NCBI RefSeq assembly: GCF_017348835.2
Contig: NZ_CP071375.1
Length of the DNA: 64,000 nt
From: Escherichia coli
GTDB taxonomy: Bacteria; Pseudomonadota; Gammaproteobacteria; Enterobacterales; Enterobacteriaceae
Reading direction: 5' to 3' (one strand)
The position numbers were made by a program, and so were the translations under genes. Positions 9,038-62,644 of the stretch are shown here, piece after piece. The notes beneath the pieces were generated by a model. The model did no database searches. It worked only from the letters and a program-made list of their open reading frames with translations, and was not told the DNA's origin. Positions within the stretch are counted from its first letter, which is position 1; every line of letters begins with the position of its first letter.

Positions 9038-9616
9038 TTAACGCGCGTTCTGCTTGATGAATTCGTGAATGCTGGTGTCCTGAGACATATCAGCGATGGT
9101 ATCGGTCAGCACACTGTTAACCGCATCGGCGATATTTTTGTTGGAGGCCTGGAACGCACCTTCAACGTTGTAGCTGGCACGATAGTTTTTGGTCATTTTG
9201 TTGCCATTCTGCGCGGTAGCGATGATGGCGATATCCGCTTTGGTAGCGATGTTGTAGCGCACGTTGCCCTGGGACACGTCAGCATACAGTTGGCTAACGA
9301 TGATTTGCAGATTAACCGGGCCATTCGGACCAACCATGTAACCACGCGCGGTCATCTGTTTTTCCAGCACTTCTTGCAGCAGGAAACGCAGATCGCGGGA
9401 GGCGGTCAGGGTAACGATTTGATTATCGCGGGTGACTTTTGCCAGCGCCTGATCGGTACGCTGATCGGCACCATTAATGCTTACGGTGACGCCCATCAGG
9501 CTTGGATCCTGCTGTGGCAGTGTAATCGTCGGGGAAACTTCAATAGTTGTTGGCGGTTTTGCGCATCCTGCAAGCATAAACAGAGCAACTAACGGGAAGA
9601 GGATTTTTTTGAACAT
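9038..9616 (-). CDS. yajG: Lipoprotein YajG, 192 aa
   Basis: ORF-track 9038..9775 minus; start at MFKKILFPLVALFMLAGC (signal peptide plus lipobox). Confidence 0.9.
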   Translation of the reverse strand: MFKKILFPLVALFMLAGCAKPPTTIEVSPTITLPQQDPSLMGVTVSINGADQRTDQALAKVTRDNQIVTLTASRDLRFLLQEVLEKQMTARGYMVGPNGPVNLQIIVSQLYADVSQGNVRYNIATKADIAIIATAQNGNKMTKNYRASYNVEGAFQASNKNIADAVNSVLTDTIADMSQDTSIHEFIKQNAR

Positions 9617-9920
9617 GTTCGGGCTCTCAGAGACTCTTAAGCGTGTTTGGTAAAAATTCCCGCCATCATAACATTGCCAACGGCGAGGGGAAGTAGGTAA
9701 GGCATGTAAATTCATCATGTTGACGAAATAATCGCCCCTGGTAAAAGAAACGCTGATGCGAGGCCTGTGTTTCAATCTTTAAATCAGTAAACTTCATACG
9801 CTTGACGGAAAAACCAGGACGAAACCTAAATATTTGTTGTTAAGCTGCAATGGAAACGGTAAAAGCGGCTAGTATTTAAAGGGATGGATGACATCTCAGC
9901 GTTGTCGGAGGAGATATTTC

Positions 9921-10238
9921 ATGATGATACGTGAGCGGATAGAAGAAAAATTAAGGGCGGCGTTCCAACCCGTATTCCTCGAAGTAGTGGATGAAAGCTA
10001 TCGTCACAATGTCCCAGCCGGCTCTGAAAGCCATTTTAAAGTTGTGCTGGTCAGCGATCGTTTTACGGGTGAACGTTTTCTGAATCGTCATCGAATGATT
10101 TACAGTACTTTAGCGGAGGAACTCTCTACTACCGTTCATGCGCTGGCTCTGCATACTTACACTATTAAGGAGTGGGAAGGGTTGCAGGACACCGTCTTTG
10201 CCTCTCCTCCCTGTCGTGGAGCAGGAAGCATCGCGTAA
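9921..10238 (+). CDS. bolA: Stress-induced morphogene/transcriptional regulator BolA, 105 aa
   Basis: ORF-track 9888..10238; start at [15 protein letters not shown] to match known protein. Confidence 0.92.
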
Positions 10239-10291
10239 AAACGCATTTGCAACTGTCGGCGCTTTTCCAGTATGTTGCTAAAGATTTTATG

Positions 10292-10319
10292 AAAAACGGC
10301 CTGCGGGCCGTTTTGTTTT
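10292..10319 (+). terminator. bolA intrinsic terminator (AAACGGCC-TGCG-GGCCGTTT followed by T-run)
   Basis: Hairpin plus TTTTGTTTT read downstream of bolA stop. Confidence 0.7.
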
Positions 10320-10572
10320 GTCTGGATTTTGCGCTTTTTGCCCAGCATTCAGACGAAAATTGCCCGGGAATTGTGAAAAAATACGCGACAGCGCGCAATA
10401 ACCGTTCTCGACTCATAAAAGTGATGCCGCTATAATGCCGCGTCCTATTTGAATGCTTTCGGGATGATTCTGGTAACAGGGAATGTGATTGATTATAAGA
10501 ACATCCCGGTTCCGCGAAGCCAACAACCTGTGCTTGCGGGGTAAGAGTTGACCGAGCACTGTGATTTTTTGA

Positions 10573-11880
<1,308 letters not shown>

Positions 11881-11913
11881 TTTACGCAGCATAACGCGCT
11901 AAATTCGCACAAA

Positions 11914-11946
11914 GGCCCGTCACCGCCAGGTGGTGGGCTTTTTTTT
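11914..11946 (+). terminator. tig intrinsic terminator
   Basis: GC-rich imperfect hairpin GCCCGTCACCGCCAGGTGGTGGGC followed by T8. Confidence 0.7.
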
Positions 11947-12017
11947 GTCATGAATTTTGCATGGAACCGTGCGAAAAGCCTCTTTCGGTGTTAGCGTAAC
12001 AACAAAAGATTGTTATG

Positions 12018-12046
12018 CTTGAAATATGGTGATGCCGTACCCATAA
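12018..12046 (+). promoter_or_regulatory. Sigma-32 (heat-shock) promoter of clpP: -35 CTTGAA, -10 CCCATAAC-like
   Basis: Motifs match sigma-32 consensus (TTGAAA / CCCCATNT) with 15-16 bp spacer, about 80 nt upstream of clpP. Confidence 0.5.
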
Positions 12047-12125
12047 CACAGGGACTAGCTGATAATCCGTCCATAAGGTTACAATCGGTACAGCAGGTTT
12101 TTTCAATTTTATCCAGGAGACGGAA

Positions 12126-12749
12126 ATGTCATACAGCGGCGAACGAGATAACTTTGCACCCCATATGGCGCTGGTGCCGATGGTCATTGAACAGACCTCA
12201 CGTGGTGAGCGCTCTTTTGATATCTATTCTCGTCTACTTAAGGAACGCGTCATTTTTCTGACTGGCCAGGTTGAAGACCACATGGCTAACCTGATTGTGG
12301 CGCAGATGCTGTTCCTGGAAGCAGAAAACCCAGAAAAAGATATCTATCTGTACATTAACTCCCCAGGCGGGGTGATCACTGCCGGGATGTCTATCTATGA
12401 CACCATGCAGTTTATCAAGCCTGATGTCAGCACCATCTGTATGGGCCAGGCGGCCTCAATGGGCGCTTTCTTGCTGACCGCAGGGGCAAAAGGTAAACGT
12501 TTTTGCCTGCCGAATTCGCGCGTGATGATTCACCAACCGTTGGGCGGCTACCAGGGCCAGGCGACCGATATCGAAATTCATGCCCGTGAAATTCTGAAAG
12601 TTAAAGGGCGCATGAATGAACTTATGGCGCTTCATACGGGTCAATCATTAGAACAGATTGAACGTGATACCGAGCGCGATCGCTTCCTTTCCGCCCCTGA
12701 AGCGGTGGAATACGGTCTGGTCGATTCGATTCTGACCCATCGTAATTGA
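12126..12749 (+). CDS. clpP: ATP-dependent Clp protease proteolytic subunit ClpP, 207 aa
   Basis: ORF-track full length; [30 protein letters not shown]... Confidence 0.97.
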
Positions 12750-12874
12750 TGCCAGAGGCGCAACTGTGCCGCTATACTTATCCAGGGCGGCACAACGCTG
12801 TAAGCGGCTTGCGCCTGAGAATGGCATTTGCGTCGTCGTGTGCGGCACAAAGAACAAAGAAGAGGTTTTGACCC

Positions 12875-14149
12875 ATGACAGATAAACGCAAAGATGGCTC
12901 AGGCAAATTGCTGTATTGCTCTTTTTGCGGCAAAAGCCAGCATGAAGTGCGCAAGCTGATTGCCGGTCCATCCGTGTATATCTGCGACGAATGTGTTGAT
13001 TTATGTAACGACATCATTCGCGAAGAGATTAAAGAAGTTGCACCGCATCGTGAACGCAGTGCGCTACCGACGCCGCATGAAATTCGTAACCACCTGGACG
13101 ATTACGTTATCGGCCAGGAACAGGCGAAAAAAGTGCTGGCGGTCGCGGTATACAACCATTACAAACGTCTGCGCAACGGCGATACCAGCAATGGTGTCGA
13201 GTTGGGCAAAAGTAACATTCTGCTGATCGGTCCGACTGGTTCCGGTAAAACGCTGCTGGCTGAAACGCTGGCGCGCCTGCTGGACGTCCCGTTCACCATG
13301 GCCGACGCAACCACGCTGACCGAAGCCGGTTATGTGGGCGAAGACGTTGAAAACATCATTCAGAAGCTGTTGCAAAAGTGCGATTACGACGTACAGAAAG
13401 CGCAGCGCGGGATTGTCTACATCGATGAAATCGACAAGATTTCTCGTAAGTCAGACAACCCGTCTATTACCCGTGACGTTTCCGGTGAAGGCGTACAGCA
13501 GGCACTGTTGAAACTGATCGAAGGTACGGTAGCTGCTGTTCCACCGCAAGGTGGGCGTAAACATCCGCAGCAGGAATTCTTGCAGGTTGATACCTCTAAG
13601 ATCCTGTTTATTTGTGGCGGTGCGTTTGCCGGTCTGGATAAAGTGATTTCCCATCGTGTAGAAACCGGCTCCGGCATTGGTTTTGGCGCGACGGTAAAAG
13701 CGAAGTCCGACAAAGCAAGCGAAGGCGAGCTGCTGGCGCAGGTTGAACCGGAAGATCTGATCAAGTTTGGTCTTATCCCTGAGTTTATTGGTCGTCTGCC
13801 GGTTGTCGCAACGTTGAATGAACTGAGCGAAGAAGCTCTGATTCAGATCCTCAAAGAGCCGAAAAACGCCCTGACCAAGCAGTATCAGGCGCTGTTTAAT
13901 CTGGAAGGCGTGGATCTGGAATTCCGTGACGAGGCGCTGGATGCTATCGCTAAGAAAGCGATGGCGCGTAAAACCGGTGCCCGTGGCCTGCGTTCCATCG
14001 TAGAAGCCGCACTGCTCGATACCATGTACGATCTGCCGTCCATGGAAGATGTCGAAAAAGTGGTTATCGACGAGTCGGTAATTGATGGTCAAAGCAAACC
14101 GTTGCTGATTTATGGCAAGCCGGAAGCGCAACAGGCATCTGGTGAATAA
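12875..14149 (+). CDS. clpX: ATP-dependent Clp protease ATP-binding subunit ClpX, 424 aa
   Basis: ORF-track full length; N-terminal zinc-binding CSFCGK...CDEC and Walker A GPTGSGKT. Confidence 0.97.
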
Positions 14150-14180
14150 TTAACCATTCCCATACAATTAGTTAACCAAA

Positions 14181-14211
14181 AAGGGGGGATTTTATCTCCC
14201 CTTTAATTTTT
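14181..14211 (+). terminator. Terminator-like hairpin after clpX (AGGGGGGAT-TTTA-TCTCCCCT followed by T-rich run)
   Basis: Imperfect G/C stem followed by TTTAATTTTT. Confidence 0.45.
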
Positions 14212-14226
14212 CCTCTATTCTCGGCG

Positions 14227-14253
14227 TTGAATGTGGGGGAAACATCCCCATAT
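14227..14253 (+). promoter_or_regulatory. Sigma-32 (heat-shock) promoter of lon: -35 TTGAAT, 13-bp spacer, -10 CCCCATAT
   Basis: Near-consensus sigma-32 elements read about 85-110 nt upstream of lon ATG; coordinates consistent with the lon start frame. Confidence 0.7.
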
Positions 14254-14336
14254 ACTGACGTACATGTTAATAGATGGCGTGAAGCACAGTCGTGTCATCT
14301 GATTACCTGGCGGAAATTAAACTAAGAGAGAGCTCT

Positions 14337-16691
14337 ATGAATCCTGAGCGTTCTGAACGCATTGAAATCCCCGTATTGCCGCTGCGCGATGTGGTGGTTT
14401 ATCCGCACATGGTCATCCCCTTATTTGTCGGGCGGGAAAAATCTATCCGTTGTCTGGAAGCGGCGATGGACCATGATAAAAAAATTATGCTGGTTGCGCA
14501 GAAAGAAGCTTCAACGGATGAGCCGGGTGTAAACGATCTTTTCACCGTCGGGACCGTGGCCTCTATATTGCAGATGCTGAAACTGCCTGACGGCACCGTC
14601 AAAGTGCTGGTCGAGGGGTTACAGCGCGCGCGTATTTCTGCGCTCTCTGACAATGGCGAACACTTTTCTGCGAAGGCGGAGTATCTGGAGTCGCCGACCA
14701 TTGATGAGCGAGAACAGGAAGTGCTGGTGCGTACTGCAATCAGCCAGTTCGAAGGCTACATCAAGCTGAACAAAAAAATCCCACCAGAAGTGCTGACGTC
14801 GTTGAATAGCATCGACGATCCGGCGCGTCTGGCGGATACCATTGCTGCACATATGCCGCTGAAACTGGCTGACAAACAGTCCGTTCTGGAGATGTCCGAC
14901 GTTAACGAACGTCTAGAATATCTGATGGCAATGATGGAATCGGAAATCGATCTGCTGCAGGTTGAGAAACGCATTCGCAACCGCGTTAAAAAGCAGATGG
15001 AGAAATCCCAGCGTGAGTACTATCTGAACGAGCAAATGAAAGCTATTCAGAAAGAACTCGGTGAAATGGACGACGCGCCGGACGAAAACGAAGCCCTGAA
15101 GCGCAAAATCGACGCGGCGAAGATGCCGAAAGAGGCAAAAGAGAAAGCGGAAGCAGAGTTGCAGAAGCTGAAAATGATGTCTCCGATGTCGGCAGAAGCG
15201 ACCGTAGTGCGTGGTTATATCGACTGGATGGTACAGGTACCGTGGAATGCGCGCAGCAAGGTCAAAAAAGACCTGCGTCAGGCGCAGGAAATCCTTGATA
15301 CCGACCATTATGGTCTGGAGCGCGTGAAAGATCGCATCCTTGAGTATCTTGCGGTTCAAAGCCGTGTCAACAAAATCAAGGGACCGATCCTCTGCCTGGT
15401 AGGGCCGCCGGGGGTAGGTAAAACGTCCCTGGGTCAGTCCATCGCCAAAGCCACTGGGCGTAAATATGTCCGTATGGCGCTGGGCGGCGTGCGTGATGAA
15501 GCGGAAATCCGTGGTCACCGCCGTACTTACATCGGTTCTATGCCGGGTAAACTGATCCAGAAAATGGCGAAAGTGGGCGTGAAAAACCCGCTGTTCCTGC
15601 TCGATGAGATCGACAAAATGTCTTCTGACATGCGAGGCGATCCGGCCTCTGCACTGCTTGAAGTGCTGGATCCAGAGCAGAACGTAGCGTTCAGCGACCA
15701 CTACCTGGAAGTGGATTACGATCTCAGCGACGTGATGTTTGTCGCGACGTCGAACTCCATGAACATTCCGGCACCGCTGCTGGATCGTATGGAAGTGATT
15801 CGCCTCTCCGGTTATACCGAAGATGAAAAACTGAACATCGCCAAACGTCACCTGCTGCCGAAGCAGATTGAACGTAATGCACTGAAAAAAGGTGAGCTGA
15901 CCGTCGACGATAGCGCCATTATCGGCATTATTCGTTACTACACCCGTGAGGCGGGCGTGCGTGGTCTGGAGCGTGAAATCTCCAAACTGTGCCGTAAAGC
16001 GGTTAAGCAGTTACTGCTCGATAAGTCATTAAAACATATCGAAATTAACGGCGATAACCTGCATGACTATCTCGGTGTTCAGCGTTTTGACTATGGACGC
16101 GCGGATAACGAAAACCGTGTCGGTCAGGTAACCGGTCTGGCGTGGACTGAAGTGGGCGGTGACTTGCTGACCATTGAAACCGCATGTGTTCCGGGGAAAG
16201 GCAAACTGACCTATACCGGTTCGCTCGGCGAAGTGATGCAGGAGTCCATTCAGGCGGCGTTAACGGTGGTTCGTGCGCGTGCGGAAAAACTGGGGATCAA
16301 CCCTGATTTTTACGAAAAACGCGACATCCACGTCCACGTACCGGAAGGTGCGACGCCGAAAGATGGTCCGAGTGCTGGTATTGCTATGTGCACCGCGCTG
16401 GTTTCTTGCCTGACCGGTAACCCGGTTCGTGCCGATGTGGCAATGACCGGTGAGATCACTCTGCGTGGTCAGGTACTGCCGATCGGTGGTTTGAAAGAAA
16501 AACTACTGGCAGCGCATCGCGGTGGGATTAAAACAGTGTTAATTCCGTTCGAAAATAAACGCGATCTGGAAGAGATTCCTGACAACGTAATTGCCGATCT
16601 GGACATTCATCCTGTGAAGCGCATTGAGGAAGTTCTGACTCTGGCGCTGCAAAATGAACCGTCTGGCATGCAGGTTGTGACTGCAAAATAG
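14337..16691 (+). CDS. lon: ATP-dependent protease Lon, 784 aa
   Basis: ORF-track 14292..16691; start at [25 protein letters not shown]; Walker [10 protein letters not shown]; catalytic serine motif PKDGPSAG. Confidence 0.96.
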
Positions 16692-16723
16692 TGACCTCGC
16701 GCAAAATGCACTAATAAAAACAG

Positions 16724-16760
16724 GGCTGGCAGGCTAATTCGGGCTTGCCAGCCTTTTTTT
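16724..16760 (+). terminator. lon intrinsic terminator (GGCTGGCAGGC...GCTTGCCAGCC followed by T7)
   Basis: Long GC hairpin followed by TTTTTTT. Confidence 0.8.
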
Positions 16761-16899
16761 GTCTCGCTAAGTTAGATGGCGGATCGGGCTTGCCCTTATT
16801 AAGGGGTGTTGTAAGGGGATGGCTGGCCTGATATAACTGCTGCGCGTTCGTACCTTGAAGGATTCAAGTGCGATATAAATTATAAAGAGGAAGAGAAGA

Positions 16900-17172
16900 G
16901 TGAATAAATCTCAATTGATCGACAAGATTGCTGCAGGGGCTGATATCTCTAAAGCTGCGGCTGGCCGTGCGTTAGATGCTATTATTGCTTCCGTAACTGA
17001 ATCTCTGAAAGAAGGGGATGATGTAGCACTGGTAGGTTTTGGTACTTTTGCCGTTAAAGAGCGTGCTGCCCGTACTGGCCGCAACCCGCAGACCGGTAAA
17101 GAGATCACCATCGCTGCCGCTAAAGTACCGAGCTTCCGTGCAGGTAAAGCACTGAAAGACGCGGTAAACTAA
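16900..17172 (+). CDS. hupB: DNA-binding protein HU-beta, 90 aa
   Basis: ORF-track full length; [29 protein letters not shown]... Confidence 0.97.
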
Positions 17173-17207
17173 GCGTTGTCCCCAGTGGGGATGTGACGAA
17201 GTTCAAG

Positions 17208-17235
17208 GGCGCATCTACTGATGTGCCTTTTTTAT
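17208..17235 (+). terminator. hupB intrinsic terminator (GGCGCATC-TACT-GATGTGCC followed by T-run)
   Basis: Hairpin plus TTTTTTATTT read after hupB stop. Confidence 0.7.
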
Positions 17236-17363
17236 TTGTATTCGGTGACTTTCTGTGTCTTGTGGGCTGACAATTGCCCCCGTTTCTTGTCACAATAGGC
17301 CTTTGCGCGCATCGATACGTTGCGTGAGGTACACAGTCATCTACAGCGGAGTGTTGTTACACC

Positions 17364-19341
<1,978 letters not shown>

Positions 19342-19349
19342 ACCGTTAA

Positions 19350-19757
<408 letters not shown>

Positions 19758-19776
19758 TTAATTTGCATAGTGGCAG

Positions 19777-19809
<33 letters not shown>

Positions 19810-19861
19810 TGACCTCTGTACTTATAACAGTTCTTATAACAACAAGTAAGGTTATTGCGCT

Positions 19862-20260
19862 ATGCAAACACAAATTAAAGTTCGTGGATATCATCTTGAT
19901 GTTTACCAGCACGTTAACAACGCCCGCTACCTTGAGTTTCTCGAAGAAGCCCGCTGGGATGGGCTGGAAAACAGCGACAGTTTTCAGTGGATGACCGCCC
20001 ATAACATCGCTTTCGTGGTGGTGAATATCAATATTAACTATCGCCGTCCGGCAGTATTGAGCGACCTGTTAACTATCACCAGTCAGTTGCAGCAATTAAA
20101 TGGAAAGAGCGGCATTTTAAGTCAGGTCATCACTCTTGAGCCGGAAGGGCAGGTGGTAGCCGACGCGCTCATTACGTTTGTTTGTATCGATCTCAAAACG
20201 CAGAAGGCTTTAGCGCTGGAAGGGGAGCTGCGCGAAAAGCTGGAGCAGATGGTTAAGTAA
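19862..20260 (+). CDS. fadM: Long-chain acyl-CoA thioesterase III FadM (hotdog fold), 132 aa
   Basis: ORF-track full length; MQTQIKVRGYHLDVYQHVNNARYLEFLEEARW. Confidence 0.92.
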   Translation: MQTQIKVRGYHLDVYQHVNNARYLEFLEEARWDGLENSDSFQWMTAHNIAFVVVNININYRRPAVLSDLLTITSQLQQLNGKSGILSQVITLEPEGQVVADALITFVCIDLKTQKALALEGELREKLEQMVK

Positions 20261-31907: not shown

Positions 31908-32021
31908 GGGGGCTCTGTTGGTTCTCCCGCAACGCTACTCTGTTTACCAGGTCAGGTCCGGAAGGAAGCAGCCAAGGCAGATGACGCGTGTGCCGGGATG
32001 TAGCTGGCAGGGCCCCCACCC
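31908..32021 (+). ncRNA. ffs: 4.5S RNA (signal recognition particle RNA), 114 nt
   Basis: Exact match to remembered 4.5S RNA sequence GGGGGCUCUGUUGGUUCUCCCGCAACGC...GGCAGGGCCCCCACCC; conserved SRP domain IV motif GGAAGGAAGCAGCC present; coordinates frame-checked against overlapping ORF-track translation. Confidence 0.95.
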
Positions 32022-47551: not shown

Positions 47552-48846
47552 ATGAGTTATCAGGTCTTAGCCCGAAAATGGCGCCCACAAACCTTTGCTG
47601 ACGTCGTCGGCCAGGAACATGTGCTGACCGCACTGGCGAACGGCTTGTCGTTAGGGCGTATTCATCATGCTTATCTTTTTTCCGGTACCCGTGGCGTCGG
47701 AAAAACCTCTATCGCCCGACTGCTGGCGAAGGGGCTAAACTGCGAAACCGGCATTACCGCGACGCCGTGCGGCGTGTGCGATAACTGTCGTGAAATCGAG
47801 CAGGGGCGCTTTGTCGATCTGATTGAAATCGACGCCGCCTCGCGCACCAAAGTTGAAGATACCCGCGACCTGCTGGATAACGTCCAGTACGCTCCGGCGC
47901 GTGGTCGTTTCAAAGTTTATCTCATCGACGAAGTGCATATGCTGTCGCGCCACAGCTTTAACGCACTGTTAAAAACTCTTGAAGAGCCGCCGGAGCACGT
48001 TAAGTTTCTGCTGGCGACGACCGATCCACAGAAATTGCCGGTGACGATTTTGTCGCGCTGTTTGCAATTTCATCTCAAGGCGCTGGATGTCGAGCAAATT
48101 CGCCATCAACTTGAGCACATCCTCAATGAAGAACATATCGCTCACGAGCCGCGGGCGCTGCAATTGCTGGCGCGCGCCGCTGAAGGCAGCCTGCGAGATG
48201 CCTTAAGTCTGACCGACCAGGCGATTGCCAGCGGTGACGGCCAGGTTTCAACCCAGGCGGTCAGTGCGATGCTGGGTACGCTTGACGACGATCAGGCGCT
48301 GTCGCTGGTTGAAGCGATGGTCGAGGCCAACGGCGAGCGCGTAATGGCACTGATTAATGAAACCGCTGCCCGTGGTATCGAGTGGGAAGCGTTGCTGGTG
48401 GAAATGCTCGGCTTGTTGCATCGTATTGCGATGGTACAACTTTCGCCTGCTGCACTTGGCAACGACATGGCCGCCATCGAGCTGCGGATGCGTGAACTGG
48501 CGCGCACCATACCGCCGACGGATATTCAGCTTTACTATCAGACGCTGTTGATTGGTCGCAAAGAATTACCGTATGCGCCGGACCGCCGTATGGGCGTTGA
48601 GATGACGCTGCTGCGCGCGCTGGCGTTCCATCCGCGTATGCCGCTGCCTGAGCCAGAAGTGCCACGCCAGTCCTTTGCACCCGTCGCGCCAACGGCAGTA
48701 ATGACGCCACCCCAGGTGCCGCCGCAACCGCAATCAGCGCCGCAGCAGGCACCGACTGTACCGCTCCCGGAAACCACCAGCCAGGTGCTGGCGGCGCGCC
48801 AGCAGTTGCAGCGCGTGCAGGGAGCAACCAAAGCAAAAAAGAGTGA
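47552..48846 (+). CDS. dnaX: DNA polymerase III gamma subunit, 431 aa, produced by programmed -1 frameshift at 48835-48841 then Glu and TGA stop at 48844-48846
   Basis: Slippery heptamer A AAA AAG in frame at codons 428-430; -1 frame reads GAG TGA immediately after; established mechanism. Confidence 0.85.
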
Positions 48847-49483
48847 ACCGGCAGCCGCTACCCGCGCGCGGCCGGTGAATAACGCTGCGCTGGAAAGACT
48901 GGCTTCGGTCACCGATCGCGTTCAGGCGCGTCCGGTGCCATCGGCGCTGGAAAAAGCGCCAGCCAAAAAAGAAGCGTATCGCTGGAAGGCGACCACTCCG
49001 GTGATGCAGCAAAAAGAAGTGGTCGCCACACCGAAGGCGCTGAAAAAAGCGCTGGAACATGAAAAAACGCCGGAACTGGCGGCGAAGCTGGCGGCAGAAG
49101 CCATTGAGCGCGACGCGTGGGCGGCTCAGGTGAGTCAACTTTCGCTACCAAAACTGGTCGAACAGGTGGCGTTAAATGCCTGGAAAGAGGAGAGTGATAA
49201 CGCAGTATGTTTGCATTTGCGCTCCTCTCAGCGGCATTTGAACAACCGCGGTGCACAGCAAAAACTGGCTGAAGCGTTGAGCATGTTAAAAGGTTCAACG
49301 GTTGAACTGACTATCGTTGAAGATGATAATCCCGCGGTGCGTACGCCGCTGGAGTGGCGTCAGGCGATATACGAAGAAAAACTTGCGCAGGCGCGCGAGT
49401 CCATTATTGCGGATAATAATATTCAGACCCTGCGTCGGTTTTTCGATGCGGAGCTGGATGAAGAAAGTATCCGCCCCATTTGA
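47552..49483 (+). CDS. dnaX: DNA polymerase III tau subunit DnaX, 643 aa (full-length product)
   Basis: ORF-track full length; Walker A GTRGVGKTS; zinc-binding CGVCDNC. Confidence 0.97.
   Translation: MSYQVLARKWRPQTFADVVGQEHVLTALANGLSLGRIHHAYLFSGTRGVGKTSIARLLAKGLNCETGITATPCGVCDNCREIEQGRFVDLIEIDAASRTKVEDTRDLLDNVQYAPARGRFKVYLIDEVHMLSRHSFNALLKTLEEPPEHVKFLLATTDPQKLPVTILSRCLQFHLKALDVEQIRHQLEHILNEEHIAHEPRALQLLARAAEGSLRDALSLTDQAIASGDGQVSTQAVSAMLGTLDDDQALSLVEAMVEANGERVMALINETAARGIEWEALLVEMLGLLHRIAMVQLSPAALGNDMAAIELRMRELARTIPPTDIQLYYQTLLIGRKELPYAPDRRMGVEMTLLRALAFHPRMPLPEPEVPRQSFAPVAPTAVMTPPQVPPQPQSAPQQAPTVPLPETTSQVLAARQQLQRVQGATKAKKSEPAAATRARPVNNAALERLASVTDRVQARPVPSALEKAPAKKEAYRWKATTPVMQQKEVVATPKALKKALEHEKTPELAAKLAAEAIERDAWAAQVSQLSLPKLVEQVALNAWKEESDNAVCLHLRSSQRHLNNRGAQQKLAEALSMLKGSTVELTIVEDDNPAVRTPLEWRQAIYEEKLAQARESIIADNNIQTLRRFFDAELDEESIRPI
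48835..48875 (+). other. dnaX: dnaX programmed ribosomal frameshift cassette: slippery site A_AAA_AAG (48835-48841) plus downstream stem-loop CCGGCAGCCGCTACCCGCGCGCGGCCGG (48848-48875)
   Basis: Heptamer and GC-rich hairpin 6 nt downstream read directly; frame verified from the dnaX start. Confidence 0.9.
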
Positions 49484-50499: not shown

Positions 50500-50528
50500 C
50501 TTGAAATTATTCTCCCTTGTCCCCATCT
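50500..50528 (+). promoter_or_regulatory. Sigma-32 (heat-shock) promoter of htpG: -35 CTTGAAA, 15-bp spacer, -10 CCCCATCT
   Basis: Near-consensus sigma-32 elements read about 50-80 nt upstream of htpG ATG. Confidence 0.7.
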
Positions 50529-50579
50529 CTCCCTCATCCTGTTTTTAACCTTAAAATGGCATTATTGAGGTAGACCTAC

Positions 50580-56794: not shown

Positions 56795-56890
56795 GGTTCG
56801 TAGGCCAGATAAGGCGTTCACGCCGCATCTGGCATTTGGCATCTCGATGCCTGATGCGACGCTGGCGCGTCTTATCATGCCTACATATTT
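56795..56890. repeat. REP/BIME: two inverted REP units after gsk
   Basis: GTAGGCCAGATAAGGCGTTCACGCCGCATCTGGCA and GATGCCTGATGCGACGCTGGCGCGTCTTATCATGCCTAC. Confidence 0.8.
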
Positions 56891-62560: not shown

Positions 62561-62644
62561 ACACCGTCGCTTAAAGTGACGGCATAATAATAAAAAAATG
62601 AAATTCCTCTTTGACGGGCCAATAGCGATATTGGCCATTTTTTT
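62561..62644 (+). ncRNA. chiX: ChiX (MicM/SroB) Hfq-dependent small RNA, about 84 nt, with terminator hairpin GGCCAATAGCGATATTGGCC plus U7
   Basis: Sequence ACACCGTCGCTTAAAGTGACGGCATAATAATAAAAAAATGAAATTCCTCTTTGACGGGCCAATAGCGATATTGGCCATTTTTTT matches remembered ChiX including seed CUCUUUGACGGG; coordinates frame-checked. Confidence 0.9.

Follow-up and report, generated by a model that had tools for sequence, protein, structure and literature searches.

The dependence of clpP on RpoH was reportedly described by Kroh and Simon in 1990 and by Li, Tao and Simon in 2000. The sigma-32 promoter of clpP-clpX is the promoter behind the heat-shock protein F21.5, which is ClpP, reportedly described in the 1990 work of Kroh and Simon. 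The 2006 study of Nonaka is said to list clpP as a sigma-32 target and to belong to the papers that established RpoH dependence. A clpPX heat-shock promoter is already known and is textbook biology. In the accessible literature on the clpP promoter, the clpP-clpX operon and F21.5, no description of start mapping was found. Sigma-32 recognises the consensus CTTGAAA-13/15-CCCCAT(NT) (PMC3168786). The −35 motif CTTGAA is the contact of sigma-32 region 4, and dnaK P1 is the reference promoter in the structure of the sigma-32 open complex (PMC10216364).

The window analysed here is a stretch of 64,000 nt of E. coli DNA. An original prediction, made from the sequence, placed a sigma-32 promoter upstream of clpP at positions 12018–12046. 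With a probability of about 0.9, this element is the heat-shock promoter from which sigma-32 (RpoH) drives the clpP-clpX operon in E. coli. The sequence, its conservation, two transcription starts and the binding of sigma-32 to the region in vivo are observed here or in accessible data. The element is half of an overlapping promoter pair and not a stand-alone heat-shock promoter. The importance of the result beyond correct annotation is small. The features of the locus are as follows.

10582–11880: tig, with its stop codon at 11878–11880 (ORF list)
11911–11946, plus strand: intrinsic terminator of tig, a GC-rich hairpin with a T-run (terminator scan)
11991–11996, plus strand: −35 hexamer TTAGCG of the upstream promoter, 3/6 to TTGACA, 17 nt upstream of TATGCT
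12011–12019, plus strand: extended −10 TGtTATGCT of the upstream promoter, read from the sequence, at −15 to −7 of start 12026
12018–12024, plus strand: sigma-32 −35 element CTTGAAA, 7/7 to the consensus
12025–12038, plus strand: sigma-32 spacer of 14 nt, within the consensus length range and of the same length as in htpG
12026, plus strand: transcription start of the upstream promoter, an A, U00096.2 455801, 100-nt leader, 3166 reads (Cho 2014)
12039–12046, plus strand: sigma-32 −10 element aCCCATaa (ACCCATAA), 5/7 of the specified positions of CCCCATNT, core CCCAT present
12054, plus strand: transcription start of the sigma-32-type promoter, an A, U00096.2 455829, 72-nt leader, 1303 reads (Cho 2014)
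12116–12119, plus strand: Shine-Dalgarno sequence GGAG (sequence, ORF list)
12126–12128, plus strand: clpP start codon ATG (sequence, ORF list)
12126–12749, plus strand: clpP (ORF list, RefSeq annotation of E. coli genomes with identical or nearly identical sequence)
12875–14149, plus strand: clpX (ORF list, RefSeq annotation of E. coli genomes with identical or nearly identical sequence)

The strong tig terminator separates tig transcription from the clpP promoters, and the sigma-32 element is located downstream of it. The genes lon, hupB and ppiD follow downstream of clpX within the window. Window coordinates plus 444551 correspond to U00096.3, and U00096.2 coordinates are 776 lower. In an alignment of 9449–19949 (10.5 kb) with K-12 MG1655, the tig-clpP spacer had 0 differences; all 187 differences were outside the spacer, and the strain is non-K-12. 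With a spacer identical to MG1655, the published starts and ChIP sites of the K-12 clpP locus carry over once coordinates are converted. The 701 nt around the element were present with 95–100% identity and annotated tig and clpP in 5424/5426 complete E. coli genomes, and a 60-nt promoter stretch was 100% identical in 5416 of the 5424.

The element reads CTTGAAATATGGTGATGCCGTACCCATAA on the plus strand, that is CTTGAAA-N14-aCCCATaa, and its 5' end precedes the clpP ATG (12126) by 108 nt, its 3' end by 80 nt. Two bases of CCCCATNT, the initial C and the final T, are missing in the clpP −10 element, which was counted against the sigma-32 reading. There are two exact matches to CTTGAA-N13-17-CCCAT in the window, one at clpP and one for htpG at 50500, versus 0.18 expected occurrences. 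A plain count over the 14 consensus positions gave 12/14 for the clpP site. At least 12/14 was reached by four sites of the window versus 1.9 ± 1.5 in dinucleotide shuffles. Since a shuffled window contains about two sites at this level, the count was not kept as a measure of significance. As it was not convincing, a weight matrix from independent sites was built instead. The matrix used 21 sigma-32 sites of Shewanella oneidensis, excluding clpP, and every position was scored on both strands (128,000 positions). The clpP site obtained 17.9 bits and rank 3 of 128,000; shuffled sequences contained 0.23 sites per window with at least 17.9 bits. Higher scores were assigned to htpG (50500, 22.7 bits) and lon (14226, 22.05 bits), and the next best site after clpP had 13.8 bits. 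Each of the three top-scoring sigma-32 sites of the 64 kb thus precedes a classical heat-shock gene. The original prediction that CTTGAA and CCCATA-type elements fit the heat-shock consensus was correct, with 7/7 in the −35, a 14-nt spacer, 5/7 in the −10 and 17.9 bits. The clpP sigma-32 motif is real and better than chance. Decisive support comes from conservation, transcription start and ChIP data; a motif search by itself would have left the site indistinguishable from chance. Another sequence in the window, CTCGAAATATTTACTAAAAAATCCGCATGT at 2171–2200 on the minus strand, had 12/14 by the consensus count but only 12.0 bits by the matrix and probably arose by chance.

Conservation was studied by scanning species-representative genomes with ClpP, which yielded 80 loci, 18 of them from Enterobacterales. 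On the coding strand, 16/18 other Enterobacterales clpP leaders scored 11–14 of 14, with the form CTTGAA(A)-13/14-CCCCA. The reverse strand of the clpP upstream regions served as control and had a maximum of 11, in 3/80 loci. Matches were present in Enterobacter, Citrobacter, Superficieibacter, Mangrovibacter, Klebsiella sp. and Yersinia, and also in Rahnella, Pectobacterium, Photorhabdus, Acerihabitans, Brenneria and Arsenophonus. In a stack of 17 Enterobacterales sequences, CTTGAA and CCCA were invariant (17/17), and the first C of the −10 was present in more than 70%. The spacer length in clpP orthologues was 13 or 14 nt; its sequence varied, and so did the flanks on either side and the separation from the ATG (108–263 nt). 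Near the gene, AGGAGAC...ATGTC was almost invariant in the alignment of Enterobacterales clpP leaders. In Providencia and Budvicia, the consensus scan detected no clear sigma-32 match upstream of clpP. In Vibrio, Pseudomonas, Shewanella and others beyond Enterobacterales, most scores of the simple consensus scan were at background (8–11/14), so a deeper conservation is not claimed.

Transcription starts were taken from two published genome-wide 5'-triphosphate-enriched data sets of MG1655 (Kim 2012; Cho 2014). In exponential phase, U00096.2 455801 was the sole clpP start, with a 51-mer ending ...TGTTATGCTTGAAATA (Kim 2012, PMC3415461). The same start, window position 12026, was called in exponential phase, stationary phase, glutamine and heat, again with a 51-mer ending ...TGTTATGCTTGAAATA; start 12054 was called in stationary phase and glutamine only, with a 51-mer ending ...CCCATAACACAGGGA (Cho 2014 Table S4, PMC3923258). 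Both starts were assigned to the unit clpP;clpX (Cho 2014, PMC3923258), and the clpP-clpX operon is served by both promoters. The rows of Kim 2012 include no Klebsiella transcription start for clpP. Three further starts inside or just after clpP (U00096.2 456289, 456426 and 456560; window 12500–12874) were assigned to clpX with SigH/SigE ChIP labels. Start 456426 had 827 reads and was called in stationary phase, glutamine and heat; 456560 was called in exponential phase and heat (PMC3923258). The matrix detected no sigma-32 motif above 2.3 bits in 12500–12874.

Start 12054 is located 7 nt past the proposed sigma-32 −10. In the table of Cho 2014, this gap is 7 nt for dnaK P1 (CCCCATTT), 7 nt for htpG (CCCCATCT) and 8 nt for lon. 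The flags of these reference sigma-32 starts are SGH for dnaK P1, S for htpG and SGH for lon, and none is exponential (PMC3923258). Start 12054 resembles all three in being present in stationary phase and absent in exponential phase, and shares the glutamine call with dnaK P1 and lon. It behaves like the sigma-32 class. In the heat sample (50 °C, 10 min; Cho 2014), start 12026 was called and 12054 was not; the htpG start is likewise without a heat flag. To be called in Cho 2014, a secondary start needs 40% or more of the level of the gene's strongest one. The missing heat flag at 12054 weakens the sigma-32 claim but does not refute it. It speaks neither for nor against heat induction of this start. 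Start mapping supports the original prediction with a qualification: the primary start at 12054 fits sigma-32 geometry, and the dominant exponential start at 12026 falls within the element itself.

Occupancy data locate sigma-32 at clpP. ChIP-chip 5 min after heat shock gave a log2 signal of 2.0 at U00096.2 455839, window position ~12064, at clpP. It is one of 34 confirmed targets that Wade 2006 and methods other than ChIP had detected as well (PMC2996942). The region SigH_46 (455362–456349) covers the spacer, together with SigD, SigS, SigN and SigE regions (Cho 2014, PMC3923258). The resolution of ChIP-chip is hundreds of bp and cannot tell the two overlapping clpP promoters apart. In vitro genomic SELEX found RpoS and RpoD holoenzymes bound to the tig-clpP spacer; clpP was missing from the list of the RpoH holoenzyme. 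The supplements of Salmonella RpoH ChIP-exo, Cappable-seq and Bonocora 2013 contained nothing on the clpP promoter, and Salmonella promoter ChIP-exo contained an expression row only. Conservation, a start 7 nt past the −10 and the ChIP-chip signal at clpP together support the predicted sigma-32 promoter upstream of clpP.

The second promoter of the pair overlaps the first. Counted from the mapped start 12026, its hexamer TATGCT occupies −12 to −7, and the last two bases, CT at 12018–12019, are the first two of the sigma-32 −35. The main log-phase start 12026 falls into the sigma-32 spacer, inside the claimed element. Sequence, start position, exponential use and the RpoD ChIP and gSELEX signals in the spacer suggest a sigma-70-type promoter. 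It can also explain the binding of RpoD and RpoS in the spacer. A generic sigma-70 scan of 11600–12400 reported no site; the −35 of the upstream promoter is poor (3/6), and the hexamer CATAAC (12042–12047) has no −7 T. The block GTTAGCGTAAC...TTGTTATG was kept only in the Escherichia/Citrobacter/Enterobacter/Klebsiella-like group, with TTGTTATG in eight Enterobacteriaceae-type genomes only. The sequence GTTAGCGTAAC (11990–12000) holds the upstream −35 and is a short imperfect palindrome, GTTA-GCG-TAAC, kept in Enterobacteriaceae-type genomes.

Could start 12054 belong to another sigma factor? TTGAAA (12019–12024) and CATAAC, separated by 17 nt, may be read as a sigma-70-family promoter, and the element may have a dual specificity in which E-sigma-70 or E-sigma-S initiates partly or wholly at 12054. 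RpoD holoenzyme bound in the tig-clpP spacer, and TTGAAA-17-CATAAC was chosen as the best sigma-70 match there (Shimada 2014, PMC3946193). CATAAC would occupy −12 to −7 of 12054. An RpoS gSELEX peak is located in the spacer, SigD and SigS ChIP regions cover it, and the calls of 12054 include stationary phase and leave out the heat sample (Cho 2014, PMC3923258). These binding and ChIP signals are explained equally well by the upstream promoter with start 12026, only 28 nt away, and the stationary-phase call is common to the canonical sigma-32 starts of dnaK P1, lon and htpG, the glutamine call to dnaK P1 and lon. With no T at −7, CATAAC is not reported as a site by the sigma-70 scan. Start 12054 was absent in exponential phase, when sigma-70 dominates (PMC3415461). 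Finally, the bases conserved across genera are CTTGAA and the CCCC(A) tract, not A(−11) and T(−7) of a sigma-70 −10. This reading is unlikely; some use of start 12054 by E-sigma-70 or E-sigma-S may occur.

The 5' end at 12054 could also be a processing product of the transcript from 12026, with the motif being a non-functional resemblance. Both 5' ends are on the same transcript path, the enrichment of primary ends by terminator exonuclease is imperfect, and the crude consensus count of the motif was not significant. Against processing, the end falls exactly 7 nt past the −10, as in dnaK P1 and htpG, and its condition profile differs from that of 12026. A chance motif does not fit the third rank of its matrix score in the window, nor its invariance across genera with otherwise unalignable leaders, nor the sigma-32 ChIP signal at clpP (PMC2996942). 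Geometry, conservation and ChIP data make a processing origin or a chance motif very unlikely. The preferred reading is a sigma-32 promoter at 12018–12046 with its start at 12054.

On this sigma-32 promoter, RNA polymerase with sigma-32 would read CTTGAAA (12018–12024) with region 4 and aCCCATaa (12039–12046) with region 2. Initiation at A12054 would yield a clpPX mRNA with a 72-nt leader. Basal expression probably comes from the overlapping extended −10 sigma-70-type promoter TTAGCG-17-TGtTATGCT with start A12026, whose transcripts would run through the sigma-32 promoter. A rise of sigma-32 upon heat, unfolded proteins, starvation or stationary phase would add the 12054 start to basal expression. 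Occupancy of the two promoters by sigma-70 and sigma-32 polymerases is probably mutually exclusive, because the polymerase footprints overlap and the starts are 28 nt apart. We infer both the assignment of a sigma factor to each start and this mutual exclusion.

The tig-clpP spacer had no RNA family in Rfam, and shuffled sequences folded as well as the 72-nt and 100-nt leaders (z = 0.23 and 0.44), which lends no support to an RNA thermometer or a structured leader. The leader block ACTAGCTGATAATCCGTC (12056–12072; consensus CTGGCTGATAATCCGTC) is kept in many Enterobacterales. In the minimum free energy fold, CCGUC pairs with GACGG (12117–12123) between the Shine-Dalgarno sequence and AUG, within an overall fold that is no better than shuffles.

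A sigma-70-like promoter, TAGTCA-17-TAGAAT, is located downstream of the sigma-32 motif in other genera, about 45–70 nt before the clpP ATG. It is kept in Yersinia, Rahnella, Pectobacterium, Photorhabdus, Brenneria, Acerihabitans, Arsenophonus, Mangrovibacter and Klebsiella sp. BIGb0407. Its positions in three of the scanned loci are as follows.

Locus L010, 1429–1457: TAGTCA-17-TAGAAT
Locus L011, 1430–1458: TAGTCA-17-TAGAAT
Locus L008, 1437–1465: TAGTCA-17-TAGAAT

E. coli, Citrobacter and Enterobacter have only the −10 remnant TACAATCGGTAC (12080–12091; TACAAT at 12080–12085) without the −35 half. Mangrovibacter and Klebsiella sp. BIGb0407 have both the downstream and the extended −10 promoter. 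From these alignments it may tentatively be proposed that the sigma-32 promoter is a fixed ancient part of clpP control and that the housekeeping promoter moved. The Escherichia/Citrobacter/Enterobacter clade would rely instead on a new promoter with an extended −10, placed over part of the sigma-32 −35. This proposal is possible rather than probable. If true, promoter turnover would put sigma-70 and sigma-32 polymerases in direct competition for the same DNA.

The original prediction also described the region as dense in sigma-32-controlled genes, naming tig, clpPX, lon, ppiD and htpG. This holds for clpP, lon and htpG, which have both motifs and ChIP-chip signals; lon (458088) and htpG (494367) are in the same sigma-32 ChIP-chip table as clpP (PMC2996942). 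For tig it is not supported: upstream of the gene the sigma-32 matrix reached at most 6.4 bits, and the tig promoter is outside all SigH ChIP regions (PMC3923258). The case of ppiD is weak. The sole sigma-32-like sequence upstream is CTTGTGGGCTGACAATTGCCCCCGTTTCT (17259–17287), CTTGTGG...CCCCCGTTT, with 6.0 bits, and the ppiD starts are labelled SigD/SigS only (Cho 2014, PMC3923258).

Several other elements were seen in the window. The sRNA gene sraA (Rfam RF02029, 106.7 bits) is located antisense in the clpX-lon spacer at 14170–14265 on the minus strand. It overlaps the lon sigma-32 promoter GTTGAATGTGGGGGAAACATCCCCATAT (14226–14253, plus strand) and the lon start. The htpG promoter CTTGAAATTATTCTCCCTTGTCCCCATCT (50500–50536) fits the consensus perfectly (14/14) and ranks first among the sigma-32 sites of the window; its published start is an A 7 nt past the −10. 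At htpG, the offset between window and MG1655 differs by 11 nt, which indicates an indel versus K-12 between lon and htpG. Other Rfam matches in the window were the dnaX frameshift element (48816–48880), SRP RNA (ffs, 31916–32012), sroB (62561–62644) and naRNA4 (56803–56881).

Compared with known systems, the closest is the clpP-clpX promoter of E. coli K-12, the same locus with identical sequence and no promoter difference. The htpG (50500–50528) and lon (14226–14253) promoters have the CTTGAA/CCCCAT architecture of clpP, and both are sigma-32 ChIP targets. Like clpP, htpG has a 14-nt spacer and a 7-nt gap between −10 and +1. Both fit the consensus better than clpP (12/14, 17.9 bits), with 14/14 and 22.7 bits for htpG and 22.05 bits for lon. 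The promoter dnaK P1 shares with clpP the CTTGAA −35, a CCCCAT-type −10 and a start 7 nt past the −10. It differs by a 13-nt spacer and the full CCCCATTT, where clpP has 14 nt and ACCCATAA. Unlike htpG and lon, clpP is also read from a stronger housekeeping promoter that overlaps on the upstream side, and in most samples the sigma-32 start is therefore secondary to it.
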